Assembly (NCBI RefSeq): GCF_963921235.1
Contig: NC_086108.1
Location: forward strand, 73,968,001 to 74,032,000
DNA: 64,000 nt
Source of the DNA: Mobula hypostoma
Lineage: Eukaryota
Direction of reading: 5' to 3'
Positions 7,991 through 63,716 of the stretch are shown one piece after another; the stretch's first letter is position 1; every line of letters begins with the position of its first letter. The translations under genes and the position numbers were made by a program. Below the pieces are notes generated by a model. The model made no database searches and was not told the origin of the DNA. It saw only the letters and a list, made by a program, of their open reading frames with translations.

Positions 7991-8026
7991 AGTCCTGACG
8001 AAGGGTCTCGGCCTGAAACGTCGACT
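7991..8026 (+). ncRNA. Minimal type-I hammerhead ribozyme motif (copy 1)
   Basis: AGTC-CTGACGA-AGGGTCTCGGCCT-GAAA-CGTC^GACT. It has the core CUGANGA/GAAA/UH, stem I AGUC/GACU and a palindromic ACGU stem III. Confidence 0.8.
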
Positions 8027-8052
8027 GCACCTCTTCCTAGAGATGCTGCCTG

Positions 8053-8088
8053 AGTCCTGACGAAGGGTCTCAGCCTGAAACGTCGACT
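8053..8088 (+). ncRNA. Minimal type-I hammerhead ribozyme motif (copy 2)
   Basis: Same motif 62 nt downstream, with one substitution in the stem II loop region. Confidence 0.8.
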
Positions 8089-8914
8089 GCACCTCTTCCT
8101 AGAGATGCTGCCTGGCCTGCTGCGTTCACAGCAACTTTTATGTGTGTTGCTTAAATCAATTTATGATATAGTTTCTCCTCACATTTTTAGTTAATCTTAC
8201 CTTGAAGCATTTCAGATCCAGAAAAAGATTTTGAGAAACTTGATACATTAGCATGCACTCAGAAAAGATCTCTCTCTACTAAGAAAATAACAACAATGTT
8301 TCAGTATTCTTGGTGAACAACTCAGATACTGAAGTTAATCTCTTCAATCTCTCATCAGTTATTTTTACATGGCACACACAAGCATTTAAAATCAGCATAC
8401 ACATTTCTTTTCATTGGTACATCTAGCAAAGTTGACAGACTACAGTTATGGCCTTGTACCGTTGTCACAATCTTATCTGTGTGAATGTATAAACACAAAC
8501 AAATATATTACCTGACCAACCTGAAATAAATCCAAAAATAAATTCGATTATTTATGACTAAGAAACAGAAAAAGTCAGCCACAGCATACCAAAACTAATA
8601 TATCAGCAATGAACTAAGTTTATTTAGCAGTGTACTAAACAAAGCAAAGGACAAAAATGATCAAGAAATGAAAAAAGTTCACTTAGAGAATATATTAAAT
8701 ATTGAAGCATCACAGAGCGTTGATAGTTCTTGTAAGTAACTATACCCATGTTTTCTCCAAGGAGCTTATTTTCTACCCTTCATCCATTTTCAAGGCAGCT
8801 ATGAAAAGCCATTGCAGAATAGATTAGCAGACTACACATGAAATGGGCTGTAAAATTGGGAAAAGCATTGCCTGCTGATCCATATTAATTGTTTCCATTA
8901 GTTGGTAGACTCAG

Positions 8915-9600
8915 ACCATAAGACACAAGAGCAGAAATAGGCTATTCGGCCCACCCAGCCCGCTCCACTATTCAAATCATGGCTAATTTATTTTTCATCT
9001 TAACAACATTCTCCTGCCTTCTCCCCATAACCTTTGATGCCATAACTAATCAAGAACCTATCAACCTCCACTTTAAGTATATCCAATAACAGCTTCCATT
9101 AATGTCTGTGGCGATGAATTCCACAGATTCATCACCCTCTGACTGAAGAAATTCCTCCTCATCTCTGTTCTGAAGGGACGTCCTTCTATTCTAAGGCTGT
9201 GCCCTCTGACTCTTGACTGTCCCATTATTGGAAATATCTTTGATACATCTTTCAATATTTAGAAGGTTTTAATGAGATTACCCGCCCCCCCTCCCATTCT
9301 TCTCAATTCCAGTGAGTATAGGTCCAGAACCATCAAATACTTCTTAAACGCTAACCCTTTCATTCCGAGGATCATTCTTATAAACCTCCTGTGGGCCCTT
9401 AACAATGCCAGCACATCCTTTCTTAGATATGCAGCCTAAAACTGCCCGCAATACTCCAAATGTGGTTTGACCAATGCCCTACCAGGTCACAGCATTTCAC
9501 CCTTGTTTTTATATTCTGGTAATCTCAAAATTAATGCCAACATTGCATTTGCCTTTCCCGCTGTTCAACTGACTTATCCAGCAAGTTAACCTTTGCACTG
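8915..9600 (-). mobile_element. CR1 LINE 3' fragment
   Basis: Minus ORF 9073-9255 (RGHSLRIEGRPFRTEMRRNFFSQRVMNLWNS); tail GACCATAAGAC at ~8915. Confidence 0.85.
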
Positions 9601-12600: not shown

Positions 12601-12873
12601 GGGTATTCAACTGAAAAGCACATCCGAGTCGAATGCATCCAACAAGACGGACCTATTACAGTCACCGAACTTACCTCTCAGTGATGATCATATCACTGAC
12701 AGCAACATGACACCAGAAACCGAGAAAGTTGTCTTTGACAAGACACCTACCAAACCTGATGCCACTGCACAAGTCCAAAGGCACTATCCTGAAAGGAACA
12801 GAGCGCCACCTATAAAACTGAACCTTTACAACTGTGAAGTTCATTATGGATGGTTATTGTGAAAGTATGTTTA

Positions 12874-14505
12874 CAGGTGTCCCCCGCTTTTTGAACGTTC
12901 GCTTTACGAAACCTCACTGTTACGAAAGACCTACATTAGTTACCTGTTTTCACTAACAGAAGGTGTTTTCACTGTCACGAAAGAAGCAGCACACGAAAAA
13001 ACAGCTTGCGATAAAAGGCAGCGCGTGAGAAAAAGCAGCCGCCCCCCCCCCCCCCCCGATTCGGAACTGCATTCTCACCGGCATTGCTTAAACACGTGCC
13101 TGTGAGCAGCCATTTGCAAGATGAGTTCTAAGGTATTGGAAAAGCCTGAAAGAGAGCTCGTAAGGGTGTTGCACTTAGCATAAAACTAGACATAATTAAG
13201 CGTTTCGATCGTGGTGAACGAAGTAAGGACAAAGTGAGCTTGGCTTGTGGAAGTTGACAAAGATGATATTGAAGAGGTTTTGGCATCTCATGACCAAGAA
13301 CTGATAGATGAAGAGCTGATGCAATTGGAAGAGGAAAGGATAGCAATCAAAACCGAATGCAGTAGTGAACGGACCGAAAGTGAAGTCATCCAGGAACTGA
13401 ACGTGAAGCAACTGCGTGAGATTTTCACTGCAATGATAAAGTACGACTTTAATTTTGAAAGGGTACGTCGGTTTAGGGGATATTTGCAGGATGGTTTGAG
13501 TGCTTACTAAGAACTGTATGATCTAAAAATGCGCGAGGCTAAGCAGTCAAGCAAGCCTTCCACAGCAGACGACGAACCTCGAACCTCGACCTTCGACATC
13601 GAGGCAGGCAGTCATAGGAGAAAATGACCTGCCTCCCTGATGGAAACAGACGACACCCTAGTGTCCCACCACCCCAACCCCGGGCCGCAGACAGGTACCG
13701 ATTCGCGGAGAATGCAGCTGTAGCCGGGAGACACCCAGTACATCTTTAAGAAAAAAAGCCGAAATAAACAAACTAATTAATTAGGTGCTGCCTGGCACGT
13801 AAATGTTGGCCCAGATCAGAGACAATTGCTGATTGCGTCGCCTCTGATCTGGGCCGACATTTACGTACTGGGCGGCACCTAATTAATTAGCTTGTTTATT
13901 TCGGCTTTTTTCTTAAAGATGTGCTGGGTGCGTCCCAGCTGCCGCTGTACCACTGCATGCTTCGCAGATCGGTATCAGTCAGTGGCCCGCAGGGTGGGGA
14001 CCACTGCACCACCCCAACCTCCGATGACTCAGCCTAACACACCATCATCAGTGTGCTCGATGTCTTCCCGATTCCAGTAAGTGATACTACACTGTACATA
14101 CATTATTTCTTTTTTATATCGGCTGTGTATTTTTACATGTTGTTTGGTATGATTTGGCAGCTTCATAGCTTAAAGGTTACTGGAGAGCGCTTGCACCGTG
14201 TTTCTGCCGAGAGCGCTTGCGTGAGATTTTCGCTACAGAGAACAGTGCGGCAATGATTGTGGAAAAGTATTTCTACTTTATATAGGCTGTGTATTCATCA
14301 TATCATTCCTGCTTTTACTATATGTTACTGTTATTTTAGGTTTTATGTGTTATTTGGCATGATTTGGTAGGTTATTTTTGGGTCTGTGAACGATCACAAA
14401 TTTTTCCCCTATAAACTAATGGTAATTGCTTCTTCGCTTTACGACATTCCGGCTTACGAACCATTTCATAGGAACGCTCTACCTTCGGATAGCGGGAGAA
14501 ACCTG
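12874..14505 (+). mobile_element. Tigger (pogo/Tc1-mariner) internal-deletion derivative nested in Gypsy
   Basis: TA TSDs. TIRs CAGGTGTCCCCCGCTTTTTGAACG / CAGGTTTCTCCCGCTATCCGAAGG. A transposase N-terminal HTH remnant (KLDIIKRFDRGERSKD) is joined directly to the C-terminal EVDKDDIEEVLASHDQELIDEELMQL. Confidence 0.85.
13714..13948. repeat. ~105-bp-arm imperfect inverted repeat inside the Tigger derivative
   Basis: CATCTTTAAGAAAAAAAGCCGAAATAAACA...CCAGATCAGAG is mirrored by CTCTGATCTGG...TGTTTATTTCGGCTTTTTTCTTAAAGATG; spacer ~20 nt. Confidence 0.9.
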
Positions 14506-15234
14506 TATTTGGAATAAGGATTTATTAAAGGAAAATTGAATGTTTTGTACATATACAGTTTTATATTACATTAATCTAAAGGGGGGGAAGTGTATTGTAT
14601 AGATCTATTTCTTTTAGAGCAATGAACCCCCCCCCACTTACATATCGATCTGTTGACTGCGCATGCGCTGTTGTCTACGTGTGTACATTGTTCTCTCTCA
14701 CTCACTCTCACTGTAATGCAAATAAACCAGTTAAAGCTATCTCCCGCATGCGTGCTTTTATTTAATTGATATGTAATTGTGCACAGGCAACAGGTCACAC
14801 TCCACAAGAAATCCAGCCTCTCCCCTGCAGCCACAATATATTTCTATGGCTATTCCATTTCAGTTTCTCATTAATGGTGACCCTCAGGATGTTGATGTTT
14901 GGGGACCCTGTTCTAGTCATGCCATTGAATGTTAAACATTCGCTTGTTTGAGTTGGTCAATGCATCGCATGTAGGAGACCTTAATTTTGCATCCCAATTG
15001 CCTGTTAAAGTCTGAATGTTACTCAGGTCTTGAGGCACACAAATATTTTCTACACCTTTGAGAAACTGAACACCAGTCATAAACAATACCCACTTTTCTT
15101 TAAGCAATAAGAGTTCTGCAATTTGATTTCCATTATAGCAGTATTTTAAAATTCAATTAAAACTGAGTTACTATCAAGCATGTTTGAGAAACAAGAGAAA
15201 TATTGATCAAAAAGAGCAATATGGCATAACTATT

Positions 15235-15550: not shown

Positions 15551-16839
15551 TTTAAATATACCATTTACCACATTAACATTACTTAAACACACATTGCACA
15601 GAATTTGTCATCTTCAATAGAATATTTCAAAACTTCATTACTTTCAACAAGCTAGGATGGTGATAGGAAAAAGAGTAATCTGATCTGTCAAGCTCTCTCA
15701 TTAATTATTTTTAATGGGATCTGTCCATCCTATTGACAATACTTATCAATGCTGGAGTTCATTGACAAGATTTTCCTTGCATCTCCCACAAGTGAAACCA
15801 TAACTGATCATAAATCAATCTCACATATAAATCAGATGTATGGCTAGTATGCAACAATATATGAATGTCATTTTAAGGATATTTCTCCTTAGTTTCACAA
15901 ATAAGAATTCCTCTTGGTACCTTTCCCCTTCAATATAGCAAATAAATTTCTCAGTTATGAAAGCACTATAAATAAGGAATGTTCTCATTTTTGTTATGTT
16001 ACTGATTTGGCCTGCTTCTATTCCCTACCCCCAGGCTCAATATACATTTCCTGAGATTGGCCTGCAAACATACTTCTATTGCTGTTGAGCCACCTGCTAG
16101 CAAGTGCCCAGGGAATGTACTATGATTTATGCTGCCTTTCTTTGCACTGTACTGCACAGTGGACTCCCCTTGTGCAAGCTTCTGCAGGCATCCCAGAGTT
16201 CATGTTTGGAAATATCTGCCCATGGAGCCTGCACTGTTCAACCTAATCTAAATAGAGGAATCTCACTGAAATTAATGTGAGAAAGACTGCCAAAAAGAAA
16301 AGGCAAACTAACCATTTCACATCATTCAGTTTAGTTTATAACAGTTTAAGCGCTTTTTTAAGCATTTTGAATTGTTCCAGTTTTTTTTGCATTTTTCATT
16401 GATTCAGGGCATTTTGAATGTTTGATAGTCAAAAGCATTCACAAATGGAGCAACAAAACTGGCTACAAAAGCCAATCTCTGAATATTGTTGGCTATTTAG
16501 GATAAAGTGATCCTGAGCTGCACTATACTGCATAAAGCCATAGACCAATGTAAGGAAGCAGACTTCGCAGCTGAACACTATGCCAGGTATCATAATTGAA
16601 ATAAAAATATAGTCACCAACAAAGAAAATTAATTTTACATAAAAGTAATTCCCTGCTGGCAAAATGTTATACACTGTTTCATTAATCAGGTGGTGGAAAA
16701 TACAATAAATATACTGAATACAACAGACTGATCTTTTCTTCGAGTTACATTCATAAAATAAAACTATTTGAAATTATTTTAACAAGTTATTGTGAAGTTA
16801 AGGATTCATAAGCTCCAAAAACTTAAAATAAATCTTTTA

Positions 16840-16980
16840 AAAACGCAAACAACAGGAATTCTGCAGATGCTGGAAATTCAAGCAACACACATAAAAGTTG
16901 CTGGTGGACACAGCAGGCCAGGCAGCATCTCTAGGAAGAGGTGCAGTCGACGTTTCAGGCCGAGACCCTTCGTCAGGACT
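16840..16980 (-). mobile_element. Penelope solo pseudo-LTR insertion
   Basis: Almost identical to 59180-59320; 11-bp TSD TAAATCTTTTA (16829-16839, 16981-16991). Confidence 0.9.
16945..16980 (-). ncRNA. Minimal type-I hammerhead ribozyme motif, intact
   Basis: Reverse complement reads AGTCCTGACGAAGGGTCTCGGCCTGAAACGTCGACT. Confidence 0.8.
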
Positions 16981-18204
16981 TAAATCTTTTATTTGCTTTT
17001 TTTTTTCAAATTTAGCCCTTTCCTCTTTTAAAAGATGTGTGCTTATTTTAAAATATAATTTATCACCATCAATACATACAAAACTACTATCTTCAGTAAG
17101 TGAGTTGCATTTCATCCATTTTTGGCAGTGCATTTTGCCCTAATACCACAGAAAACTAACTAGGACAAATCCACTTTTAAAAAAACTTCAGGTGATCCCT
17201 GCATTACAGAGGGGTTATGTTCTGTAATGCAAACATCTTTTCCTATTAAATTCTGTTAACAGTGGAGATGCATCCCTATGGAATGTTTCCCTTTCATAAT
17301 AAACCATTTTTCCCAGAGATGATAAGGTGACCAAATGTCATTTAAAAGCTGAAGCAACAGACTGGGAAGGTGGACAAGGCTCATGCAAAAGTAGCAACAA
17401 GTTAAGTCATTAATACTGTGGAACAATAAGATCTGGATGTGGATGTCATCACATCAATGATACTGGCAGTCGCACCAAGTCACTCCAGTTCAAGGACGTA
17501 TGAACAGATGTCTCAGAGTGCAGAGCAGCCATGATCTTCAATTGCGAGGCATTTTTTTCTAACATGCAAGACTCACGCATTAGGAAAGGGTTTCAGATAT
17601 GGGGATATCTGGAAAAGGCATGGGATTTGAGGACATGGCTTCATGGAAGAAAGGTGGTTCAGGGGAGTAATAGGTAAAAACACAGTGACTGAGTGAAAGT
17701 AAAGTAGGGACCAGGACATTGCTTTAAGGAGCTGGCCATGGATACTGCTGCTCTTCACAAAATAGTGGGTCAGAGAAAATGCCACGTTGATTATTGAAAC
17801 CAGTATGTCAATTACAACAGCGAAAAAAAAACACCAGTGTTTTGGTGAATTGTCACTGGAAGTATCCAATTTCCCAATATGTTGAACTTCCATCAGAAAC
17901 AGATCAAAAGATCTGGAATTTTAATTACACACTCTTTTCACATAAAAAGACAAATAATTTTGTTTTCCTGATCCAATTTCAAGGCAGTTATTGAAACAAT
18001 ACATTCTCATTAAACTATCTTTTCTGGTATCTCATTAGTTCCTTAAGATTGCTGCACTATATTTAACCAACCTTTCACAAAGGGAAATCCAGCATCGTAT
18101 GATGTAAAAGCAAGCCTGAGATAAGAGCAGAAATTGCAAGAAATACCTAGCATCTGAAAAGAGAGAAAGAGTTGAAGAATCAGAAAACAACAGCTCCTTT
18201 CTCC

Positions 18205-44000: not shown

Positions 44001-45191
44001 CATCACAAAGAGATTTATCAGTCCTCATTTTTGTTTTTAAATACAGAGCAATAATTTTTCAGTGTAGAAACGCTGATGATAAACTGGAAATGTGAAAAAT
44101 CTTGAACAGGTCAGACAAAAGAAACAGGAAAAAATACCTCCTGCACCAAGGGCTCAGGTTTTGAGAATATATCATAAGCAAAGCGAAACAAATAGAGGAT
44201 GAAGGAAATGAGAAACATTCACACAAGCTAGACATACAGTCTCCAAGCAAATAAGGAATCTGAATAGCAAACAACTTACAATCATCTGCCATTTAATTTT
44301 TCTTTTAAGTAGAATCAATATTTTCCTGTTACAAGGCAACTTTACCAATTTTCAGAAGTCTCTAAATTAGAATGCATTCCAATTTTCTGAGTGTATGCAA
44401 CAATTGAACCATTTCACCTCCGTGACTTAAGTTTTACAGCCAAAGCTAGTTTAGGAATCACAACTTAAGCAGGTTTATTCCATTAAATATGGATCAGAAT
44501 TTAGGTCATGTTTGGCAGAAAAGATCTTTTAAATCTTGAGCTCTGGACAAATGCTCTGTTAATTGTTAAATTATTACAACATTAACCTGCGCAGCATCTA
44601 GCCACAAAATGATATAAGGTATACACTAGACCTTTAAGGAAATTAATTTAACACACCTCTCTCAGAAAGGCAGCGTCCATTATTAAGAACCCCCAGCACC
44701 CAGTGCATGCCCTTTTCTCACTGTTACCTTCAGGTAGGAGGTACAGAAGCCTGAAGGCACACACTCAGCGATTCAGAAACAGCTTTTTCCCTTCGGCCAT
44801 CCGTTTCCTAAATGGACATTGAACCCGTGAACACCATCTCACTTTTTTTAATATACAATTATTTTAGTTTTTTGCACATAAGAAATAGGAGCAGAGTAGA
44901 ATTTCTCTTCAGATCAAGAAGACAGCGGTAAGAGGCTAAGGATTTCCAGCGAGAAGACATTTTATTTCTCGGAGTAGGAGAGAGGCCAGACTGCGCAGGC
45001 CCATGACGTCAGACAGTTGAGCGCGAACAATTTGAAAAGGAAACCGCCATATCCAGCAGGCAGCGTCAGAGCGGGCTGCGGAGTGAGAAGGTGCAGAGTG
45101 AAAGGGCTTTGGCTCAACGGGCTTCGGCGGAGACGGGAAGAGGCTTCCTGCGACCATTGAGTCTCATAGTAATGGAGTAAGTTACAGTTTT

Positions 45192-46082: not shown

Positions 46083-46183
46083 GTTGGCAAGGGGAAGGAA
46101 ACCAAGGTGTTAAGGTCGAGGAACAGGAAAATAGAAATAAGTCAAAAATACTGTGCAGCAAAGATGGCAAGAAGGACAGGCCG

Positions 46184-49038
46184 GTGAATATACAGGATAA
46201 TTTGCTGCAAAATAGAAACATAACAAAATCAGCAACAAATACTGATCTAAATGTACTGTACTTAAATGCATGCAGCATCAGAAATAAAGTGGATGACCTT
46301 ACTGCACAGCTACAGGTTAAAAGATATGACATTGTGGCCATCACCGAGTCATGGCTAAATGATGGATGTCATTGGGAGCTGAATATCCAAGGATACACAG
46401 TGTATAGGAAAGATAGGAAGGTAGGTAAAGGGGGTGGCGTGGCCCTGATGGTAAGTAACGATATCAAATCAATAGAAAGAAGGGACATAGGATCAGAAGA
46501 GGTAGAATCCTTATGGGTAGAATTAAGAAATGGCAAGGGTAAAAAGACACTAACAGCAGTTATATACAGACCTCCAACAGCAGCCAGGATGTGGACTACA
46601 AGTTGCAGCTGGAAATAGAAAAAGGGTGTCAGAAGGAAAATGTCAAGATAATTATGGGGGATTTTAATATGAAAGTGGATTGGGAAAGTCAGGAAGGTAA
46701 TGGATCTCAGGAGAGGGAGTTTGTAGAATGCCTACAGGATGGCTTTTTGGAGCAGCTTGTCCAGAAGCCCACCAGGGGACCGGCTGTTTTGGATTGGATG
46801 CTGTGTACCAAACCTGAGGCGATTGGGGAGCTGGAGGTAAAGGAACCCCTCGGAAGTAGTGATCATAATATGATTGAGTTCAGTTTCAAATTTGAAAAGG
46901 CGAAGCTGGTATCAGGTATATCGATATTTCAGTGGAACAGGGGAAATTACAGTGGTATGAGAGAGGAACTAGCCCCAAGTCGATTGGAAAAGTAAGCTAA
47001 ATGGAGGGACAGCAGAGCAGAATTGGATGAAATTCCTACAAGAAATAAAGAAAATGCAGGAAAAATATATTCCAAGAAGAAAGAAAATCATGAATGGAAA
47101 AATGGCACAAATGTGGCTAACAAGAGAGGTTAAGGCAAAAATAAAAGCAAAAGAAACGGCGTACAAGGAAGCAAAAATTAGTGGGAAAAATGAGGACTGG
47201 AAGACTTTTAAAAACTTACAGAAGGAAACTAAGAAAGTCATTAGGAAAGAAAAGATGAATTATGAAAGGAAGTTGGCGATTAACATAAAAAAGGATACTA
47301 AGAGTTTTTTTAAATATATGAAGAGTAAAAGAGTGACAAGGGTAGATACGAGACCGATTGAAAACGATGCTAGAGAAATTATAATGGATAATAAAGAGAT
47401 GGCGGAGGAACTGAATGAGTATTTTGCATCAGTCTTCACAGTGGAAGACATGAGCAATATACCTGATAGCCAGAGGTATCAGAGGATAGAATTAGGTACA
47501 GTCAAGATTACTAGAGAGAAAGTGCTTGGGAAGCTAAGTGGACTAAGAATAGATAAGTCTCCCGGTCCAGATGAGGTGCACCCAAGGGTTCTAAAGGAGG
47601 TGACTTTGGAGATTGTGGAAGCATTGGAAATGATCTTCCAGGAATCAATAGACTCTGGCATGGTTCCGGAGGACTGGAAGGTCGCAAATGTAGTTCCGCT
47701 ATTTAAGAAAGGAAGGAGGTAGCAAAAAGAAAATTACAGACCTATTAGTCTGACATCGGTAGTTGGAAAGATATTGGAGTCAATCCTCAAGGACGAGGTT
47801 ATGAAATACCACGAGGTTTATGACAAGATAGGCCGAAGCCAGCATGGTTTCATGAAGGGAAAATCCTGCCTCACCAACCTATTAGAATTTTTTGAGGTAA
47901 TCTCGAATAAGATTGACAAGGGAGAGGATGTGGATGTTGTGTATTTGGATTTTCAAAAGGCCTTTGATAAGGTGCCGCATATGAGGCTGCTTAATAAGAT
48001 GAGAGCCCATGGAATTATAGGAAAGATATTGAAATGGGTAGAGCATTGGCTGATAGGCAGAAAGCAAAGGGTGGGAATAAAGGGATCCTATTCTGATTGG
48101 TTGCCGGTTACTAGTGGTGTTCCGCAGGGGTCGGTGTTGGGGCCGCTTCTTTTTACGATGTATATCGATGATTTGGATTATGGATTAAATGGTTTTGTGG
48201 CTAAATTTGCGGATGACACCAAGATAGGTGGAGGAGCAGGAAATGTTGAAGAAACGGAAAGGTTGCAGAGAGACTTAGTTAGTTTAGGAGAGTGGGCAAA
48301 GAAGTGGCAGATGAGATACAACGTTGACAAATGTACTGTTGTACATTTCGGAAGAAGAAATAATCAGGCAGATTATTATTTAGATGGGAAGAAAATTCAA
48401 AAATCAGAAGTGCAAAGAGACTTGGGGGTCCTCGTGCAGGATACCCTAAAGATTACCCACCAAGTTGGATCGGCGGTAAGGAAAGCAAATGCTACGTTGG
48501 CATTCATTTCAAGAGGAATAGCGTATAAGAGTAAGGAGGTGTTGATGAGGCTCTATGGGGCATTAGTGAGACCTCATTTGGAATACTGTGTGCAGTTTTG
48601 GGCCCCCTATCTTAGAAAGGATGAACTGATGTTGGAGAGAGTTCAGAGAAGATTTACAAGGATGATTCCTGGAATGCAGGGGCTAACATATGAGGAGCGT
48701 TTGCCGGCTCTAGGATTGTATTCATTATAGAAGAATGAGAGGGGATCTCATAGAAACGTTTCGAATGTTCAAAGGGTTGGGCAGAGTAGATGTGGAAAGG
48801 TTGTTTCCCTTGGTGGGTGAGTCCAGGACAAGAAGCCATAGTCTTAGAATTAGAGGGTACCCAGTTAAAACAGATGAGGGGAAATTTTTTTAGCCAGAGG
48901 GTCGTGGATTTGTGGAATTCGTTGCCACATACAGCTGTGGAGGCCCGATCATTGAGGGTGTTTAAGGAGGAGATTGACAGGTATCTAATTCGTCAGAGTA
49001 TCAAGGGATATGGGGAAAAAGCCGGAAATTGGAACTAG
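46184..49038 (+). pseudogene. CR1 ORF2 (APE endonuclease + RT), frameshifted
   Basis: Consecutive ORF pieces 46184-46618, 46591-46995, 47027-47722 (TAG) and 47774-48730, then the C-terminus in other frames. Confidence 0.9.
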
Positions 49039-49786: not shown

Positions 49787-52700
49787 TTGTGCCGGCAGTT
49801 TCGCCAATCGCTGCCAGTTTTTGTTTATTGCATCTTTGTTTTACCTTTACCATCTAGTATTGGAGAGTGAAGAACTTACCAAAGTACAGGAACCCGAAGG
49901 ATTGACTAAAGTTGGTGTCGCTCGGCGGTTTTATAAAGGATCTACCTTATTGAATCTTCGTTCAGGAATAGTGGACTGCATCTGAGATAACCCCTGCAAG
50001 ATCAGGAAGGTTTGTGCAGTGTTCACTCTCCAGGGAAAGGTCAGTTCCTTTAAGCCGTTATTTCCTTCATCCTAAATCCTTTGGACAAGGTATGTCTCGG
50101 CTGGGATCAGCAGTAACGTCACCCCAGTACCAGAGGGCATGCTTTAAGAATAAGGGGTAGGTTATTTAGGACAGAGTTGAGGAGGAACTTCTTCTCCCAG
50201 AGAGTTGTGGAGGTGTGGAATGCACTGCCTCAGAAGGCAGTGGAGGCCAATTCTCTGGATACTTTCAAGAAGGAGCTAGATAGGTATCTTATGGATAGGG
50301 GAATCAAGGGTTATGGGGACAAGGCAGGAACCGGGTATTGATAGTAGATGATCAGCCATGATCTCAGAATGGCGGTGCAGGCTCGAAGGGCCGAATGGTC
50401 TACTTCTGCACCTATTGCCTATTGTCTTCGAAAAAATCAGTTTTCAGGGAAGTCTCTCCTTACTGACTGTATAAATCACTTGGACTTTCGAATTTACCAC
50501 TTTAAGACTGTGTTCGAATTTACCACTTGAAGAACTGTTCCAGAGTTCGGCTGTTAAATTGCCATATAGCAGTTAACTTCCGGTTAAAGTAGTCATTTGT
50601 TTACTTTTCACTATTATTGAGCAGAGTTTAATAAATGTTTACATTTGTTTATAAAACCTGAATAAATTCTATATTCATTGTTGCCGACCACGTAACAGAA
50701 ATTGGGGGCTCGTCTGGGATTTGTTCCAATTTTGAGTTTAAGTGCTTGTTTAATTATCAATCTGATTTGGAAAAGGGAAATACCCGATTCTTTTGTTTGA
50801 TTGGTCTGTGGGTGGTATTTGGCAGCAATGACTATTGACAAATTTCTGGCATCACCAGACCCGGAGGTATTAGCAAAGGCGAAAAAGGGTGATGTATCCA
50901 AGACTGCTACAAGGTTGGACCTTAAAGGGATATCGAAGGTTACAACAAAGCCAGTAATTCAGAGGAAAATAGCAGATCACTATATAAACTCGGGAGATTT
51001 TGATGAAGATGTGTTAGATATGTTTCCAATGAGTAAACTGAAGATGCAGTTACATATCGAACAAATAAAGTTAGAGCAATTTAAACTGGCGGTGGCGGCT
51101 AGAGAAGCAGATAAACAGAGGGAACTTGAGCTAGCAATGGAGAAATTAAAGTCTGAGAATAAGGCGTCTGGTTCTAGGAAACGGTTTGCTGTTAATCAGG
51201 AAATTAAATTAGTTCCTCCATTTAAATGAGGCAGATGTAGATAAATATTTCCAGCATTTTGAAACTATTGCTCTGATTTCACAGTGGCCGAAAGATAAAT
51301 AGCCAGTGCTGTTACAAAGTGTAATTAAAGGTAAGGCACAACAGGTTTATACAGCTTTAACTGCTGAGCAAGCACTTGATTATGATATTGTGAAGCAGCA
51401 TATATTGAAAGCATATGAACTGGTTCCGGAAGCTTATAGAGAAAGATTCAGAAATTTGAAGAAATCCGTGGACAAAACTTACGTGGAATTTGCCTACGAT
51501 AAATCTGTGTGTTTTGAGCAATGGGTTTCCTTTAAAAAATGTGAATGGGCAGTATGATAACTTAAAAGAGTTGATTTTAATGGAGGAGTTTAAAAGGTGC
51601 GACCCTGTTGACGTAAGGACATACTTAAATGAGAGGGACACTGCTACATTGCAGGAGTCTGCTAAATTACCAGATGAGTATGCCTTAATCCACAAGAGTA
51701 AATTTCCTCCGGGTAGAACTTTTAAAGGGAAAAATAGCACAGAGAGTCAAGGTAAACCAGAAATTAAATCAGAAGTTAGTGAGAAAGGTAAGGATGAAGG
51801 GGAAACATGTGAAGGGAAGTCATTTTGGTCCTATTTGTAATTATTGTAAGAAACCTGGTCATGTAGCAGCTAACTGTTTCCAACTGAAGAAGAAGGGGAA
51901 GGAGGCAGTCCCAGATGCCTGTGTGCAACATATTGAAAAACCTGTAAATCCACAGGGTTCGATAAATTTGAATGAAGCTTTGTCAAAGTCTGACCAAGTT
52001 AAGAGGGAATGTGATCATTTTATAACCGAAGGATTTGTATCCTTGAAAGAGGGGTCCACTCCAGTGACAATAAAAACTCTTAGGGATACTGGAGCTTCTC
52101 AGTCACTTATGTTAGACAGTGCTCTAAAGTTTAATGATGAGTCTGACACTGTTGAGGTAAACTATATACGAGATGTTGGGAGTGCCCTTATGCCTGTATA
52201 TTTGCATAGAGTAAATTAAGGTCAAGGTTAGTTACAGGACCTGTTAAAGTAGTACTACAACCCAGTTTACCCATGAATGATGTTTCTCTATTGTTAGGGA
52301 ATGACTTAGCAGATGGACAAGTTTTTCCTGAAGTCCATTTGACGATTAAGCCCATCTCTGATGAACCAAAGATGATTTCTAACATGGATTCCCCCTGTGT
52401 TGTAACCTGAGCTATGGGCAAAAAGATTGCTGAGGTGAATGGGCCTGTGCAGGATGAGGCTGCTACCCATAACCGCTCAACTCGGGATTCGAATTTTTAG
52501 GATGTGTCAGAAACTTTCTTACCTTCATTGTTTGATCAAGATTCTTGTAGTAAGCCTGACCATGAAGATTTGCCTCTGTCTCGGAAGGAGATGATAACAG
52601 AGCAGAGACAGAAGGAGATGATAACAGAGCAGAGACCCTGAGATAGTCAAGTTAAAGGAACAAACTCTCCCAGATAGTGAAATTGAGAAGGTGCCAATAG

Positions 52701-55440
52701 GATATTATTTTTAGAAGGGAGTATTAATGAGGAAGTGGAGATCACCTACAATTTCTGCAAGTGAGGAATGAGAGGTTGTTCACCAGGTAGTAGTTCCTAA
52801 AGTTTATCGGAATGAGATTTTAATTTTGGCTCATAGTATGCCCTTGAGTGGCCATCAAGGTGTGAAGAAAACGGCGAACCAGATTTTTAAACATTTTTAC
52901 TGGCCTGGTTTAAGAAAAGATGTGGCGACATTTTGCCAAACAGGTCATACTTGTCAGATTGTGGGTAAACCTAATCAAGTTACTCCAGTGGCCCCACTGC
53001 AACCTATTCCTGCAATTGTTGAACCATTTTCCAAAATTATTGTAGATTGTGTAGGCTCATTGGCAAAAGCTAAAACTGGCCATCAATATTTGCTGACCAT
53101 CATGTGTACTGCATCTAGGTTTCCAGAGGCAATACCTCTTAGGAATATAAAAGCCAAAACTGTGACAAGGGTTCTCATAAAGCTCTTTACTTTATTTGGG
53201 TTGCCTGAGGAAATACAATCTGATCAAGGTAGTAATTTTATGTCTGGATTTTTTCAGCAGATAGTTTATAAACTGCGAGCCAAACAGATTACATCATCTG
53301 CATATCATCCCGAATCACAAGGGGCCTTAGAGGGGTTCCATTCTACCCTCAAAACAATGATTAAGACATTTTGTATGGAAAATGAAAAGGATTGGGATGA
53401 GAGCGCTCATTTACTTTTATTTTCAGTCAGAGGGTCAGTGCAGGAATCTTTAGGTTTTAGTCCTTTTGAACTTGTGTTTGGGCATAGAGTTAGAGGACCT
53501 TTGGCATTGTTAAAAGAATAGTGGATTAATAAATAGGTACATACTAATTTATTGGATTATGTTTTCAAGTTTAAGGAAAGATTGCATAAAGCTTGTAGCT
53601 CAGCCAGGGAAAATTTAAAATTGGCTCAGGAGAAAATGAAAACTTGGTATGACAAGGAAGCTAGACTGAGGTCATTTAAGCCTGAAGTGTTGGTTCTTTT
53701 CCTGGTGCAAACAAACCCTTTACAAGCCAAATTTCATGGTCCTTATGAGATTATACCTAAAGTTAATGATGCGAATTATGTGATAAAAACACCAGATCGA
53801 AGAAGGCCAACACAGCTTTGTCATATAAATATGATAAAGCCATTTTATGAAAAACAGTCTACTACTATGACTGTTGTGGTCAATAATAGTGAGTCTGATC
53901 CCACTGGGAACTTAATGGATGATTCATCTGAGTCTTATTTTAAACCAAACATTATTTCTGCCAGATTACCAAACTCAACAATTCTGGAAAGCATTGATGA
54001 GAAATTAGCTCATTGACAGCTAGAGCAGAGGCAGCAGATGAAGCAGTTAATTTTTAAATATAGGGATTTATTTCCAGATGTTCCTAAAAGAACCACAGTA
54101 GCTTCACATAATGTAGATGTTGGAGATTCCAAACCCATAAAGCAACATCCATATGGGATGAACATGAAGAAATGTGCACTTGCTGAACAAGAAATTAAGT
54201 GTATGCTAGAGAATAATATTATTAGACCTTCTAATTCGAATTGGAGTTCACCTTATGTTATGGTGCCTAAGCCAGACGATAGTATTCAGTGTTGTACTGA
54301 TTACAGGAAGGTGAATGCTGTAACAAAAAACTGATGTATATCCAATCCCTAAGGTAGATGATTGCGTGGATAAAGTTGGAAAAGCAAAGTTCCTTACAAA
54401 GATTGATTTGTTAATGGTGTGTTCCATTGACGGATAGAGGTAGAGAGATTTCTGCATTTGTAACACCTTCTAGGTTAGATGAATATAATGTTCTACTATT
54501 TGGAATGAAGAATGCACCAGGTACTTTCCAGTGGATGATTAATTCTGTGATTCATGGGTTAAAAGATACAGATGCCTATATTGATGATTAGTTACAGGAA
54601 ATGATTCCTGGGAAGCACATATTGCTGTGGTGGAGAAACTATTTGAAAGGCTTTCAAAAGCTAACTTAACTATTAACTTAGCTAAAAGTGAATTTGATCA
54701 TGCCACTGTGACCTACCTTGGTTATGTTATGGGTCAAGGTAAGTTCGCTCTTGTTCAAGCAAAAGTTCAGGCAATATTAGAGGTACCCACTCCAACTGGT
54801 AAAAAGACTCTCAGAAGATTCTTGGGAATGGTAGGATATTACCGAAAAATTTGTAAGTATTTTGCTGACATTGCCCTTCCATTAACTAATCTCTTGAAGA
54901 AAAGTGAAAAGTTTGTTTGGACAGAGCCTTGTCAGGAGGCATTTGATAAATTGAAAACTATGCTATGTCACAAACCTGTGCTCAAATCACCTGACTTTGA
55001 AAAACCATTTTCATTAGCTGTAGATGCTAGTGATGAGGCTACAGGAGCAGTGTTACTTCAAAGGGATGAGGGTGATGAGGTTGATCATCCAGTAGCTTAC
55101 TTTTCTAAGAAATTTAATGGGTTTCAAAGAAAGTATTCAACTATAGAAAAGGAATTATTATCCCTTGTTTTGGCTTTACATTTTAATGTGTATGTGGGTA
55201 CAACTCAGAAAGCACTCGTAGTTTACACCAATCATAATCCGTTAGTGTTTTTGAGTAAGATGAAAAACAAAAATAGAAGGTTACTGAACTGGAGTTTGAT
55301 GTTACAGGAGAATAATACTTTGATAACTCATTAAAGGCAAAGATAATGTGATTGCACCCTGTCTATCTAGATGTTGAATGTACAATGTAATTTTTTTTAT
55401 GGAGTGGTATTTTAACATTTGTAACACTCCTACTGTACAT
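49787..55440 (+). mobile_element. Gmr1-like Ty3/Gypsy retrotransposon (gag-PR-IN-RT-RH order), degenerate, 3' LTR missing
   Basis: The LTR ends ...GTAACA at 50697. PBS TGGGGGCTCGTCTGGGAT (tRNA-Pro) at 50703-50720. Gag has a SCAN-like region and CNYCKKPGHVAANC; protease LRDTGA. Integrase 52826-53521 and a GPY/F region come before RT (54038-~54900) and RNase H (AVDASD, YSTIEKE). Confidence 0.92.
50127..50428 (+). mobile_element. CR1 3' fragment inserted in the Gmr1-like LTR
   Basis: Translates TRGHALRIRGRLFRTELRRNFFSQRVVEVWNALP; CCTATTG tail repeats. Confidence 0.85.
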
Positions 55441-55777
55441 TAGGTTAGCTGCTGAGTCCTTGAATACTAACCAGTCCACCGATTCAAAGCAGCTGAAGGT
55501 TTCCTCAATTCCCACTGCATCCAATTTTATATCAATTTCCTTACATCATTACTCCTGAACTAAGACTAACATTAAACAATCAACAACCAGTGGATTGTTT
55601 AAGGTAGTACATCAAATCCACATGATTGGAACCAAATGGAAAATAAAATCACTCAAATATGGCTTTGAGGAGACGTGCTAAAATTGTCATCAACAGTAGT
55701 CACTCTTACCTCAAGCAACACACATAAAAGTTGCTGGTGAACGCAGCAGGCCAGGCAGCATCGCTAGGAAGAGGTGC

Positions 55778-55813
55778 AGTCGACATTTCAGGCCGAGACT
55801 CTTCGTCAGGACT
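55778..55813 (-). ncRNA. Hammerhead motif in 3' pLTR (two substitutions)
   Basis: Reverse complement reads AGTCCTGACGAAGAGTCTCGGCCTGAAATGTCGACT. Confidence 0.65.
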
Positions 55814-56108
55814 AACTGAAGGAAGAGTGAGTAAGGGATTTGAAAGTTGGAGGGGGAGGGGGAGATCCAAAATGATAGGAGAAGACAGGAGGGGGAGGGA
55901 TGGAGCCAAGAGCTGGACAGGTGATAGGCAAAAGGGATACGAGAGGATCATGGGACAGGAGGTCCGGGAAGAAAGACGGGGGGGGGACGGGACCCAGAGG
56001 ATGGGCAAGAGGTATATTCAGAGGGACAGAGGGAGAAAAGGGAAAGTGAGAGAAAGAATGTGTGTATAAAAATCAGTAACAGATGGAGTACGAGGGGGAG
56101 GTGGGGCA

Positions 56109-59100
56109 TTAGCGGAAGTTAGAGAAGTCAATGTTCATGCCATCAGGTTGGAGGCTACCCAGACGGAATATAAGGTGTTGTTCCTCCAACCTGAGAGTGG
56201 CTTCATCTTTACAGTAGAGGAGGCCGTGGATAGACATGTCAGAATGGGAATGGGACGTGAAATTAAAATGTGTGGCCACTGGGAGATCCTGCTTTCTCTG
56301 GCGGACAGAGCGTAGGTGTTCAGCAAAGCGGTCTCCCAGTCTGCATCGGGTCTCGTCAACATATAAAAGGCCACATCGGGAGCACCAGACGCAGTATATC
56401 ACCCCAGCCGACTCACAGGTGAAGTGTTGCCTCACCTGGAAGGACTGTTTGGGGCCCTGAATGGTGGTAAGGGAGGAAGTGTAAGGGCATGTGTAGCACT
56501 TGTTCCGCTTACACGGGTAAGTGCCAGGAGGGAGTTCAGTGGGGAAGGATGGGGGGGACGAATGGACAAGGGAGTTGCGTAGGGAGCGATCCCTGCGGAA
56601 TGCAGAGGGGGGGGGAGGGAAAGATGTGCTTAGTGGTGGGATCCCGTTGGAGGTAGCGGAAGTTACGGAGAATAATATGTTGGACCCGGAGGCTGGTAGG
56701 GTGGTAGGTGAGGACCAGGGGAACCCTATTCCTAGTGGGGTGGCGGGAGGATGGAGTGAGAGAAGATGTACGTGAAATGGGGGAGATGCGTTTAAGAGCA
56801 GAGTTGATAGTGGAGGAAGGGAAGCCCCTTTCTTTAAAAAAGGAAGACATCTCCCTCGTCCTAGAATGAAAAGTCTCATCCTGAGAGCAGATGCGGCGGA
56901 GATGGAGGAATTGCGAGAAGGGGATGGCGTTTTTGCAAGAGACAGGGTGAGAAGAGGAATAGTCCAGATAGCTGTGAGAGTCAGTAGGCTTATAGTAGAC
57001 ATCAGTGGATAAGCTGTCTCCAGAGACAGAGACAGAAAGATCTAGAAAGGGGAGGGAGGTGTCGGAAATGGACCAGGTAAACTTGAGGGCAGGGTGAAAG
57101 TTGGAGGCAAAATTAATAAAGTCAACGAGCTCTGCATGCGTGCAGGAAGCAGCGCCAATGTAGTCGTCGATGTAGCGAAGGAAAAGTGGGGGACAGATAC
57201 CAGAATAGGCACGGAACATAGATTGTTCCACAAAGCCAACAAAAAGGCAGGCATAGCTAGGACCCATATGGGTGCCCATAGCTACACCTTTAGTTTGGAG
57301 GAAGTGGGAGGAGCCAAAGGAGAAATTATTAAGAGTAAGGACTAATTCCGCTAGACAGAGCAGAGTGGTGGTAGAGGGGAACTGATTAGGTCTGGAATCC
57401 AAAAAGAAGCATAGAGCTTTGAGACCTTCCTGATGAGGGATGTAAGTATATAGGGACTGGACATCCATGGTAAAAATAAAGCGGTGGGGGCCAGGGAACT
57501 TAAAATCATCGAAAAGTTTAAGAGTGTGAGAAGTGTCACGAACATAGGTAGGAAGGGATTGAACAAGGGGGGATAAAACCGTATCGAGGTATGCAGAAAT
57601 GAGTTCAGTGGGGCAGGAGCAAGCTGAGACAATAGGTCGGCCAGGACAGGCAGGTTTGTGGATCTTGGGTAGGAGGTAGAAACGGGAAGTGCGAGGTGTG
57701 GGAACTATAAGGTTGGTAGCAGTGGATGGGAGATCCCCTGAGCGGATAAAGTTGGTGATGGTGTTGGAGACTGTGGCCTGGTGCTCCTTACTGGGGTCAT
57801 GATCGAGGGGTAAATAAGAGGAGGCATCCGCGAGTTGTCGCTGTGCCTGGGCAAGGTAGAGGTCAGTACGCCAGACTACAATAGCACCCCCCTTATCGGC
57901 GGGTTTAATAATAAGGTTAGGATTAGTGCGGAGGGAGTGGAGAGCAGAGCGTTCGGAAGGAGTGAGGTTGGAATGGGGACAAGGTGCGGTGAAGTCGAGA
58001 CGGTTGATGTCCCGTGGGCAGTTAGCAATAAAGAGATCCAGAGCAGGCAGAAGACCAGAGCGGGGTGTCCATGAAGAAGAGGAGGGTTGAAGACGGGAGA
58101 AGGGGTCATCGGTGGGCGTGGAAGAGTCCTTGCCGAAGAAGTAGGCTCAGAGACGGAGATGGCGGAAGAAAAGTTCCGCATCATGGCGAACACGGAACTC
58201 GCTGAGGTGTGGGCGAAGGGGGACAAAGGTGAGGCCCTTACTGAGGACAGAGCGCTCTGCCTCCGACAGTTGAAGGTCGGAGGGGATGGTAAAGACCCGG
58301 CACGGATGAGATCTGGGATCAGAGGGGGGAGGGAGGTTGGTGTCAATGGAGAGGGGATGGTTGGGGTGAGAGGAAGATGGAGCCTCTGAGGGCCCAGGAG
58401 CTGATGGTGGGATCTGAGGGAGACAGCGTTGCAGAGTGGTGGTGGGGGAAGGGGAGATGGGAGTCACAACAGCAGCACATAAAGACCCGGCTTGGAGTTC
58501 AAAGCTGGAGTCGCAGTTGGTGGTTGCGCAATCGCTTTGAATGTGTCCATGGTCGTTGCTGGAGTCCGGGTTTTGAATATACCGTGAGGTGTTGGAGCCG
58601 GCAAGATCAATGGCAGAGGCAATCTGAAGTTCATGCCTGCTAGTTTCATGGCCAGCAGGCTCTGGAGTCCGTAGATGTAGGATCTTGCGATCTTTGCCTA
58701 ACATGACAAAGTCAAAAAAACGGCGATTGCAGGCGTGGATCCGATGGAGGATGAAATAATGGGTAGGACCATTACAGACGGCGGAGAAAGTGTCCCAAAG
58801 GTGTGGAAGGGTCTTGGATAGGGACACCAAGTACCTCCTCATGGCGGAGAGAGTCGCCTTCAGAGCTTGACGGGAGAAGCGGCAAGAGGCAGAGTCAATA
58901 AAATGTGAGTACCTGGGATCCTCAGAAAGTCCAAATTGAGAGGCTTGGAAACAAATCCTAAAGCCAACTGGAGTAAGTTGACGGCGGAGGCACGTTCCAA
59001 GAAAGGATATATAGCTGTGATAGCGAGTCTGAGTCAAAGTGTGGTCGAAAAGTTGAAGAGACGAAGAAATTACAGATGGGGAACAGTGAGAGATGGTTTC

Positions 59101-59148
59101 ACTAAACTCCCGTCGAAGAAAGGATCTAAACTTCTTCGGTGTAGGCAT
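56109..59148 (-). pseudogene. Penelope RT-endonuclease ORF with one in-frame TGA and one homopolymer frameshift
   Basis: ORF 58147-59151 is in frame with ORF 56536-57468 across the TGA at 58147-58149. The reading switches to the frame ending at 56109 at the G-run ~56607-56616. Confidence 0.88.
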
Positions 59149-59284
59149 CACTGGAAGAGGCTTCGCAGTAGTGAATTTAAAAACGCAAACAACAGGAATT
59201 CTGCAGATGCTGGAAATTCAAGCAACACACATCAAAGTTGCTGGTGAACGCAGCGGGCCAGGCAGCATCTCTAGGAAGAGGTGC

Positions 59285-59320
59285 AGTCGACGTTTCAGGC
59301 CGAGACCCTTCGTCAGGACT
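59285..59320 (-). ncRNA. Hammerhead motif in 5' pLTR, intact
   Basis: Reverse complement reads AGTCCTGACGAAGGGTCTCGGCCTGAAACGTCGACT. Confidence 0.8.
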
Positions 59321-59775
59321 AACTGAAGGAAGAGTGAGTAAGGGACTTGTTGTTTGCGTCACTCTTACCTCAGCCATTTTCTTTACTTAGTGATCAGAGA
59401 TTCTACCAATTTTTATTACCTTATAAACACTTAGATTGAACAGATACATTAAATCATCGGCAACAATAGCACATTAAATCAACACAGTTGGAATAAAAAG
59501 GAAAGTTACTCAATCCAAAATTCTCTATTAAAAAAGGCCACATCAGAGTCATAAAGATATTTAGTTTGGAAACAGCCCCTTGTCCAGATCAGCCAAGTTG
59601 TCTTCCTAAACTAATCCCTTTTGCCTGCATTTGGTCTGTATCCCTTGAAAGCTTTCCCATTTGTAAACTTGATCAAATTTCTTTTGAAGATAATGGTACT
59701 TGTCTCTACTACTTATTCCATATGCTAACACCCTATGCATGAACAGTTGCCCTCAACCCCTCTTTTCCCTTCACC

Positions 59776-61873: not shown

Positions 61874-62063
61874 GTGGTTGGTGCGTGGAATGCACTGCCT
61901 GAGTCAGTGGTGGAGGCAGATACACTCGTGAAGTTTAAGAGACTACTAAACAGGTATATGGAGGAATTGAATGTGGGGGGTTATATGGGTGGCAGGGTTT
62001 GAGGGTCGGCACAACATTGTGGGCCGAAGGGCCTGTAATGTGCTGTACTATTCTATGTTCTAT
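61874..62063 (+). mobile_element. Short CR1 3' insertion
   Basis: Translates VGAWNALPESVVEADTLVKFKRLL; TTCTATG tail; TSD TTTGCATTTTG (61863-61873, 62064-62074). Confidence 0.85.
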
Positions 62064-62366
62064 TTTGCATTTTGAGTAAAATACACAAGATTCAATGTCA
62101 GTGTATCCATTAACGCTATCAGTTCTCAGAGTGCTTCAAATTACAACTCATATGCAACTAAAATGCATTTGCTTAAAAAGTGCTACTTAGCCTGATTTAA
62201 AAGACAACAAAGCAATAATCTTAGTTTTTAAGGAATTCTTAAATATTCACTTTTTAGTGATTCTGTATTATGCAATTAAATGGATTTTTTCCCTCCACCT
62301 AAATTATTCATGTAAATAAAACTTTCCAGTTAAATATGACTGTTAAACTGACACTCCAATATATTT

Positions 62367-62567
62367 AAAAACGCAAACAACAGGAATTCTGCAGATGCTG
62401 GAAATTCAAGCAACACACATAAAAGTTGCTGGTGAAAGTAGCAGGCCAGGCAGCATCTCTAGGAAGAGGTACAGTCGATGAAGGGTCTCGGCCTGAAACA
62501 TCGACTGTACCTCTTCCTAGAGATGCTGCCTGGCCTGCTGCGTTCACCAGCAACTTTTATGTGTGTT
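62367..62567. mobile_element. Palindromic (fold-back) Penelope pLTR insertion
   Basis: 69-nt arms at 62412-62480 and 62499-62567 with 2 mismatches; 14-bp TSD ACTCCAATATATTT (62353-62366, 62568-62581). Confidence 0.9.
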
Positions 62568-63492
62568 ACTCCAATATATTTGTCATGTATCTTTTCTGCC
62601 AGCATGCAATGAAAGTGCAGCGAGATTGAAGTTAGCACTTGAACAACAGGCATCAAATCAGTTTCATTTAATTGTACTTATTGGAATACATCCATATTTA
62701 TCCTCTTTAATTGTATATAGTTCTTGTGCAGACACAGTCTGAAAAATGTTTATCAAATATTTTCACTGATTTGCATGCACAATTCAATTCCTTTAATTCA
62801 AAATCACACCCTCTCAGCCACCCACCTTTCCACATGTTCCATTTTCTCTTTTCTACTTCTCTGTTAGCCCCAAGCTGATCAGGCACAAAAATGTCAGCTA
62901 GCAACAAAAAAAAATAACATTTTGTCACAGGCACTGGATTTTCCTGCTTTCACATGCTTGCAACAACAGGACATAATATAATGAAAATACTTATCAACTT
63001 TCAGAAATTATTCTTTTCTAAATAGTTACTTTTGCATTAAAACCTCACTAAATCAGCCTCTGATCAAGAGAATGCAAAATGCACAGACTTCTGACATAAA
63101 TTAGTAGACCAACCCCTCCTGTCTTAAGATGAAGCAAGAATGGCTTGCAATTTGAAATTTACCTAAAATTGCTTCTCAATTATTATAGTATTAATTGAAT
63201 ATACAAGTAGCTGCAGCCATGCTTGTGTTAGTTTTCTGGGTGTGGTCTCACTGGGTATTATTTTGGCCTTATTTAAGGAGGGTTATACTTGAGTTGGAAG
63301 TAGTTCAGAGAAAGTTGACTAGTTTTGCTGAGATGAAAGGATTTAGCAGGTTAAATCCATACCCAAATTAAGTTTAAAGAGTGAAGAGGGGAAGCTGGTT
63401 TCCATAATGTGCTCTGCTATATCCACAACTCTCTGCAGTTACTTGCAGTCATACACAGATCAGTTGCCTTACCAAGCCATGAGGCATTCATA

Positions 63493-63716
63493 CAGCAAAC
63501 AGAAGAAAATCTACAGATGCTGGAAATCCAAGCAGCACACACAAAATGCTGAAGGAATTCAGCCAGCTAGGCAGCATCTATGGAAATGAACACAGTCGAC
63601 ATTTCAGGCCAAGACCCTTCAGCGGGACTCATCTTTCTTTCACCAGTCCTGCTGAAGGGTCTCAGCCCGAAACGTCGGCTGTCCTCTTTTCCATAGATAC
63701 TGCCTGGCCTGCTGAG
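63493..63716. mobile_element. Older inverted Penelope pLTR pair inside a Rex/Babar minus-strand remnant (~63405-63788)
   Basis: Degenerate hammerheads at 63594-63629 (minus) and 63645-63680 (plus). Confidence 0.7.

Follow-up and report, generated by a model that had tools for sequence, protein, structure and literature searches.

Short copies of a Penelope-like element (PLE) carrying a minimal hammerhead ribozyme motif are scattered through a 64,000-nucleotide (nt) stretch of the Mobula hypostoma genome (contig NC_086108.1, positions 73,968,001 to 74,032,000, forward strand; hereafter the window), together with a near full-length, inactivated parent element. Judging from the sequences, the short copies are probably dead-on-arrival products of PLE insertion, in which both target strands were likely primed on one uncut RNA, at two internal sites named S and L. 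Nearly every resolved head-to-head insertion consists of one S arm and one L arm, and the 5' ends of the copies pile up at the foot of the ribozyme. Positions within the copies are numbered from the first base of the 36-nt motif in the parent element (+1 = 59320, minus strand), which places the predicted cleavage between +32 and +33.

Pairing of the two 3' ends

Copies were sampled from the first listed places on contig C1 for three versions of a downstream 33-mer (the full 100 for each of the first two versions and most of those for the third), giving 268 loci. Matching of this anchor with at most 2 mismatches yielded 365 copies, and 362 were kept after removing 3 with less than 150 nt upstream. 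As the anchor lies at +52 to +84, the sampling is independent of either copy end. The 3' ends fall into two classes, S (82-112, mode about +97 to +101) with 217 copies and L (113-155, mode about +134) with 143; the 2 remaining copies end at neither. The two sites are about 35 nt apart, and the interval between them corresponds to the 'tail' of PLEs.

More than half of the copies (209 of 362) adjoin an inverted arm, and these form 160 distinct head-to-head pairs. One S arm is joined to one L arm in 112 pairs, S to S in 1 and L to L in none, while 39 are complex and 8 lie at a locus edge; the binomial probability of this L+S excess is about 1e-32. Outward tracing of the complex pairs gave 15 more of the L+S kind and none of either other kind, with 20 unresolved and 4 reaching an edge, so the resolved total is 128 pairs: 127 L+S, 1 S+S and 0 L+L. 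Target-site duplications (TSDs) surround 104 of the 112 L+S pairs, against 6 of 221 controls with swapped flanks, which indicates that each pair is one event. Furthermore, in at least 36 of the 112 pairs the S arm has the greater upstream reach, and the tail is found in the L arm. Each arm therefore has private sequence, and neither is a fold-back copy of the other.

The two arms of a pair also resemble each other in detail. Minor variants are common to both at a rate of 0.27, compared with 0.085 (standard deviation (sd) 0.012) in shuffled pairs, and at three loci (L304, L333 and L273) an identical unusual tandem junction is present in both arms. The junctions between arms are individual to each insertion, many with gaps or inserted bases; the arms overlap by 1-5 nt in 57 of the 160 pairs, and short microhomologies or palindromes lie at many junctions. 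In single-arm copies, the small insert between the TSD and the arm is often a tiny arm from the other site (L252, L077, L120, L205), and the parent element in the window likewise carries one.

The 5' boundary at the foot of the ribozyme

The 5' ends form a continuum from +52 to beyond -1400, and 147 of the 362 copies extend more than 60 nt upstream, into the 3' untranslated region (UTR) and open reading frame (ORF) of the parent. Superimposed on this continuum is a peak, with 33 copies starting at +1/+2 and 104 within -10 to +10. The rate of 5' ends is 0.026 per nt at +1 to +10 and 0.0013-0.0018 at -61 to -500, a difference of about 15-20-fold. The peak is sharper among single-arm copies (17 of 110 at +1/+2), so junction microhomology alone is not its source. 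At the predicted cleavage position +33, by comparison, only 1 of the 362 copies begins. Genome-wide counts that demand two non-matching letters before the boundary gave 2,154 at +2, 469 at -4, 487 at +33 and 289 at the neighbour control +35; the four patterns have different denominators, which tells somewhat against the reading given below. Among pairs with a long arm, the partner lies in the hot zone in 1 of 32, where permutation predicts 15.8 (sd 3.1). This suggests two template classes, one of them bounded near +1.

The +1/+2 boundary falls at the foot of helix I, which is also where an AG follows a branch-point-like motif and a pyrimidine tract. In Drosophila virilis, an intron ends at helix I, 121 nt past the start site (PMC4209133; PMC2377424). 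Splicing was considered as the cause of the boundary and rejected: no upstream-donor junction at +3 or -2 was found among 102 same-strand junctions, tandem junctions lack GT donors, no capture of a host exon with a distant TSD was seen among the copies examined, L073 excepted, and the bases preceding +2 are variable among the matches listed. An initiator-like site at -4 was likewise rejected as the main boundary on the counts given above, and an extra cap-like G ahead of +1 was not supported (3 of 12). An apparent cluster of 5' ends at -149 proved to be a subfamily difference from the reference, and this may also be true of small clusters near -14 and -22. A second, loose cluster is found at -119 to -137 (L006, L308, L309, L301, L004, L187, L324 and L327) and may mark an upstream transcription start like the one in D. 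virilis.

Some copies are tandem. Among 30 copies of a 32-mer from the ORF start that were examined, many are short tandem units whose junction links a position between +177 and +465 with one between -137 and +113; in some the junction recurs, as in the three 235-nt units of L319. A 447-nt unit joining +324 to -123 occurs 7 times at four loci (L329, L331, L333 and L335) and is either a small re-mobilised non-coding derivative or a recurrent junction. The same junction is repeated inside one insertion at L319, L004, L304, L318, L307 and L321, a pattern that rolling-circle copying or repeated jumps from end to end would produce. Direct-tandem junctions linking a downstream point to -2 to +2 number at least 8 (seven loci and the window). 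Tandem hammerhead units like those of retrozymes, where they measure 150-400 nt, are present at L319, L004, L329 and L333, and are absent from the copies flagged in the initial annotation, apart from a 62-nt duplication at 7991. The short tandem units resemble nascent non-LTR (non-long terminal repeat) retrozymes; they are rare and distinct from the flagged copies.

The hammerhead motif, its parent element and neighbouring repeats

The initial annotation had listed dispersed hammerhead motifs in the window, and these sites are real. All are present, 20 shuffled windows contain no match to the motif at 12 or fewer mismatches, and the 3.48-Gb genome holds 32,886 exact copies of the 36-mer, compared with 0 for the reversed pattern. 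The 33-mer just downstream has 57,460 exact copies. Mismatches to the 36-mer number 0 at 7991, 16945-16980 (minus) and 59285-59320 (minus), 1 at 8053, 2 at 55778-55813 (minus), 5 at 63645, 63594 (minus) and 36214 (minus), 6 at 37154, 7 at 62471, where the copy is chiefly truncated and begins at motif position 7, and 9 at 35953 (minus). The site at 39725 is a BLAST match whose start falls inside the motif, and a 13-mismatch match at 35142, near chance (0.05 per shuffled window), was left out of the count. The reading of each site as a separate mini-element was not borne out, as the 12 sites belong to 8 insertions: 7991 and 8053 lie in one, 63594 and 63645 in another, 36214 and 37154 are the two arms of a third, 1.1 kb long, 55778 and 59285 lie in the two pseudo-long terminal repeats of the 3.6-kb parent element, and the other sites are separate insertions.

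The motif is the already known minimal type-I hammerhead of PLEs, as had been proposed, here at the end of a very abundant Penelope-type element, and its cleavage is predicted. It consists of a core (CUGANGA and GAAA), a helix I of 4 bp, one unpaired base ahead of helix II, a helix II of 3-4 bp and a palindromic helix III without a loop, in agreement with PMC4209133. The hammerhead pairing is kept in 86.8% of cells, against 19-44% in slid controls, the structure having been derived from the same sequences. Older families retain the motif although their flanks diverge, and the sole subfamily-level change in the young family, C/T at position 24 (G-C to G.U), keeps the pairing. No two-sided compensatory change was found in 19 hand-picked copies, where decayed copies give little power, and an Rfam scan returned no hammerhead family match, only chance hairpin matches over inverted copies. 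The lowest-energy predicted fold is not a hammerhead (z -0.07 to -1.4); this is expected for a minimal motif, so energy folding is uninformative. According to PMC4209133, most minimal hammerheads of metazoan PLEs are solo and ascribed to truncated elements, and monomers fail to cleave while dimers cleave weakly.

The parent element and its features are as follows.

55713-59357, minus strand: near full-length inactivated Penelope-like element with a Neptune/Nematis-type linker; TSD 55699-55713 / 59358-59372
56109-59148, minus strand: broken ORF with a DKG motif, reverse transcriptase (RT; YIDD), Cx4CxxC linker and GIY-YIG-type endonuclease
59285-59320, minus strand: minimal type-I hammerhead motif in the 5' pseudo-long terminal repeat (pLTR), with the architecture given in PMC4209133
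55778-55813, minus strand: minimal hammerhead motif in the 3' pLTR, 2 mismatches
59217-59226, minus strand: site S, the first 3'-end cluster and putative start of reverse transcription (+95 to +104)
59176-59189, minus strand: site L, the second 3'-end cluster (+132 to +145)
59319-59341, minus strand: branch-point-like motif, pyrimidine tract and AG ending at +2, resembling a 3' splice site
59345-59357, plus strand: tiny L-derived inverted arm at the long element's 5' junction

The resemblance at 59319-59341 is to the usual 3' splice-site consensus. The element runs from a partial-tandem pLTR through the ORF to a pLTR ending at site S, carries the tiny inverted L arm and is flanked by a 15-nt TSD. 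The family shows the features of endonuclease-containing (EN+) PLEs: partial-tandem pLTR, inverted arm, 30-40-nt tail and variable TSD. The ORF is disrupted by one stop (58149) and one frameshift in the RT-endonuclease linker. The RT domain matches Pfam RVT_1 weakly (E=1.6e-4, under the Pfam cut-off), the GIY-YIG-type assignment rests on GIY-YIG clusters (score 0.96), and a PDB sequence search with the RT part returned 0 matches. The Cx4CxxC finger in the linker (at 56513) points to the Neptune/Nematis type, as a CX2-5CxxC linker finger is described for these clades and as absent in Penelope and Poseidon in PMC8557442. The window does hold, as the initial annotation had it, an element of the autonomous type next to short copies that differ in age and are flanked by TSDs. 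The ORF-start 32-mer has merely 55 exact copies genome-wide. Three long copies (L016, L026 and L320) have a common internal duplication in the 5' part of the ORF (+812 to +1014), which marks a long-copy subfamily. Relatives of the element are also contained in runs X1, X5, X9 and X20 (contigs of uncertain RNA status with other-organism labels), in three of which depth drops steeply from 3' to 5', as for 5'-truncated copies.

The other insertions in the window are listed below; TSDs were found for 5 of all 8.

7988-8152, plus strand: short insertion, a tandem of +1 to +62 and +1 to about +100 (S end); 14-nt TSD 7974-7987 / 8153-8166
16840-16980, minus strand: single-arm stub, +1 to the L end; 11-nt TSD 16829-16839 / 16981-16991
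35928-36097, no single strand: older head-to-head insertion, +6 to +61 inverted, then +30 to L; TSD not found
36156-37287, no single strand: older head-to-head insertion with a minus-strand S arm and a plus-strand L arm; 13-nt TSD 36143-36155 / 37288-37300
39700-39852, plus strand: old stub, +10 to L, after a probable tiny inverted S arm (by eye); TSD not found
62367-62567, no single strand: young head-to-head insertion with an L arm on the minus strand (from +31) and an S arm on the plus strand (from +7); 14-nt TSD 62353-62366 / 62568-62581
63495-63714, no single strand: old-family head-to-head insertion, L arm from +1; TSD not found

In the insertion at 36156-37287, the S arm and the L arm reach about -120 and -188, and the S arm is interrupted by a later repeat at 36264-36820. 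In the old insertion at 63495-63714, a change in the catalytic CUGA core (63594-63680) is common to both arms, an indication that the source RNA was mobilised despite an impaired ribozyme.

Several unrelated repeats lie nearby. The repeat at 36264-36820 has short terminal inverted ends and a TA-like flank, with related pieces at 12872-14508, and is probably a Tc1/mariner-pogo-type DNA transposon. Two decayed elements of the LTR retrotransposon type, both encoding integrase domains (Pfam rve), occupy 30309-35143, with direct repeats at 30309-30600 and 34851-35143, and 51689-55334. A decayed long interspersed element (LINE) at 45102-48730 contains an esterase-like ORF1 (GDSL match) and an RT, with relatives at 2825-4940 and 25460-28590; these copies are presumably CR1/L2-like.

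Proposed insertion mechanism, alternatives and related systems

From the observed motif, parent element, end clusters, S+L pairing, TSDs and 5' pattern, we infer the following course of insertion. The endonuclease would cut both target strands about 14 nt apart, and each target 3' end would prime reverse transcription internally on the same RNA, perhaps via a protein dimer. The two cDNAs would then be trimmed and joined head to head, with loss of one arm leaving a single-arm stub with or without the tail. About two thirds of the two-arm events may use an RNA whose 5' end lies near +1/+2, so that both arms are short, and the rest longer RNAs; copying likely halts at the RNA 5' end at the ribozyme's foot. 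Occasional jumps from RNA 5' end to RNA 3' end, or small circles, would give rise to the tandem units. An anole element studied in vitro offers a precedent, as both strands are cut and extended from two internal start sites and insertion proceeds without ribozyme cleavage (PMC11167929). We argue that ribozyme cleavage would be unnecessary for the stub insertions and does not define most templates. The fullest form of this proposal, with obligatory asymmetric twin priming by one complex on one uncut RNA, short foot-starting RNAs as the main templates, and jumps or circles yielding tandems as a first step to retrozymes, seems to us an evenly balanced proposition.

Several observations weigh against two-strand priming on a single foot-bounded RNA. 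The sample covers the first 54 Mb of one contig and was drawn with near-exact patterns, and is thus biased to young copies. The variants common to both arms, which include just 7 of 149 rare ones, could reflect one source locus and not one molecule, and the L333 junction is found at 3 other loci too; templating of both arms by one molecule is therefore likely, short of shown. In the bulk data of PMC11167929 the start sites are alike on top and bottom strands, a result compatible with pairing within an event as well as with its absence. TSDs are lacking in 3 of the 8 window insertions and in 59 of the 110 single-arm copies. The +1/+2 peak may fit a transcription start, nuclease trimming or a roadblock alike. 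Finally, the +33 boundary count exceeds its neighbour control 1.7-fold, which leaves room for a small cleaved fraction, and seamless cleavage followed by re-ligation would be traceless in the copies.

The roadblock deserves attention in its own right. Two-strand priming could be right while +1/+2 marks a stall on a long RNA and not an RNA end, the candidates being the folded ribozyme, a bound element protein or splicing factors on the AG. The boundary lies at the first stem I pair and at the AG after a pyrimidine tract, a feature retained in older families; the D. virilis intron end at helix I (PMC4209133) fits, and a roadblock on a shared RNA would likewise limit both arms. Independent stalling, however, predicts many pairs of a long and a hot-zone arm, where 1 was observed against about 16 expected. 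The tandem junctions to -2 to +2 are as expected from run-off followed by a jump, and neither a spliced junction at +3 or -2 nor a captured exon turned up among the copies examined, so we hold a stall to be unlikely, if worth keeping in view. A retrozyme model, in which the ribozyme's cut defines the template as a linear RNA from +33 or a ligated circle, draws on the conservation of the core in old and young families while flanks diverge, on more-than-unit-length copies and multi-round tandem units, and on the excess at +33; it could also hold for long copies, where a re-ligated site is invisible. Against it, a single sampled copy starts at +33, most short arms retain the cleavage site undamaged, with their ends some 31 nt upstream, the tandem units are not joined at the cleavage site, and both arms at 63594/63645 carry the core change. 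In vitro, cleavage by minimal hammerheads is poor (PMC4209133) and insertion can do without them (PMC11167929), and we consider cleavage-defined templates quite unlikely. Fold-back self-priming, possibly on an antisense template and with the tail left by endonuclease resolution of an intermediate, appears improbable. It is proposed in PMC3846280 and PMC8557442, and the junction microhomologies, palindromes and 1-5 nt overlaps agree with it, but it would copy the first arm's content only, which the pairs with arm-private sequence contradict, as do the many junctions with gaps or inserted bases.

The initial annotation had also proposed a SINE-like (short interspersed element-like) family of ribozyme-bearing derivatives. 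Such a family, if self-spreading, would be mobilised by the Penelope protein. Short copies do far outnumber long ones (57,460 pLTR 33-mers against 55 ORF-start 32-mers, exact matches), 221 of the 362 arms are 200 nt or shorter, a 5'-end hot spot exists and the 447-nt tandem unit recurs at four loci. One short copy has, moreover, been re-copied: L073 holds the L033 stub and about 300 nt of its upstream flank within a TSD-bounded compound insertion (minus strand, about 870-1550), in which the L033-type stub is joined to a second two-arm unit inside one TSD. L073 is the closest match to the L033 flank among 40 scored and is likely a 5' transduction from L033. The L033 source, however, starts at +41 and lacks the ribozyme. 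Among the 110 single-arm copies this is the one pair with a common host flank, three other matches being element variants, so 1 of 110 is traced to another short copy. Defined common ends were not found either, as the 5' ends form a continuum with a partial peak, reaching in many copies far into the parent sequence, and the 3' ends have two alternatives, none of these ends falling predominantly at the cleavage site. The subfamily variants are those of the long copies, more than half of the copies are arms of head-to-head insertions with individual junctions, and no internal promoter was identified, though no promoter test was made. The SINE-like reading is thus largely refuted, and we regard it as very improbable.

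The motif and the insertions described here have counterparts in known systems. The minimal hammerheads of metazoan PLEs (Cervera and de la Pena 2014, PMC4209133) have the same core, 4-bp helix I, loop-less palindromic helix III and unpaired base between 9 and 10.1, lie in both pLTRs and are mostly solo. Coelacanth and Xenopus are reported with 4,000-9,000 motifs, compared with 32,886 exact copies here, and the young subfamily here has G.U, not G-C, at 10.1-11.1 and a helix II of 3-4 bp. PAc, a Poseidon element of Anolis carolinensis (Frangieh et al. 2024, PMC11167929), has the same two start sites about 35 nt apart and the tail, cuts and extends both strands, and uses uncleaved RNA as substrate. 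Unlike in PAc, the ribozyme and the two start sites precede the ORF start here, and the linker is of the Neptune/Nematis type; neither the one-S-one-L rule nor the 5' pile-up is stated in the available text on PAc. EN+ PLE units (PMC3846280, PMC8557442) show the same head-to-head 5'-truncated arms, variable TSDs, partial tandems and 30-40-bp tail, often at one end only. In these papers the tail asymmetry is qualitative and ascribed to endonuclease resolution or self-priming. Non-LTR retrozymes (PMC7229834; bioRxiv 10.64898/2026.07.22.740005) are likewise described as non-coding, pLTR-related and hammerhead-bearing, and the L319 tandems are similar; the flagged copies differ in being dispersed stubs, single or inverted, whose hammerhead is minimal where that of retrozymes is canonical, and the sample contained no large arrays. 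Compared with the EN+ PLE papers, the asymmetry is counted here (127 of 128 resolved pairs) and fold-back is disfavoured.

In LINE-1 twin priming, each of the two target strands primes on the RNA, so that an inverted 5' arm results; where the second primer pairs inside the RNA varies, and there is no overlap between the arms. In the present copies, by contrast, S and L are fixed positions, and the same sequence is duplicated in the two arms. We found neither the one-S-one-L rule nor the 5' pile-up stated in the literature searched, which lay mostly outside subscription papers.

The ribozyme and the element class are known, and the new value is the insertion record. The origin of the inverted repeats, tails and tandems of PLEs is an open question according to PMC8557442 and PMC2377424. 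Tens of thousands of young copies give a sharp S/L rule and a sharp +1/+2 boundary, both testable in a system in vitro such as that of PMC11167929, and the tandem loci show possible intermediates between pLTRs and retrozymes. If the proposal is true, a single rule of strand assignment to S and L would account alike for the tail, for the inversion of the pLTRs and for solo ribozyme stubs. Jumps from the 5' to the 3' end of short RNAs, or circles of them, would then create tandem hammerhead units as a first step towards retrozymes, one such unit having already spread to four loci.

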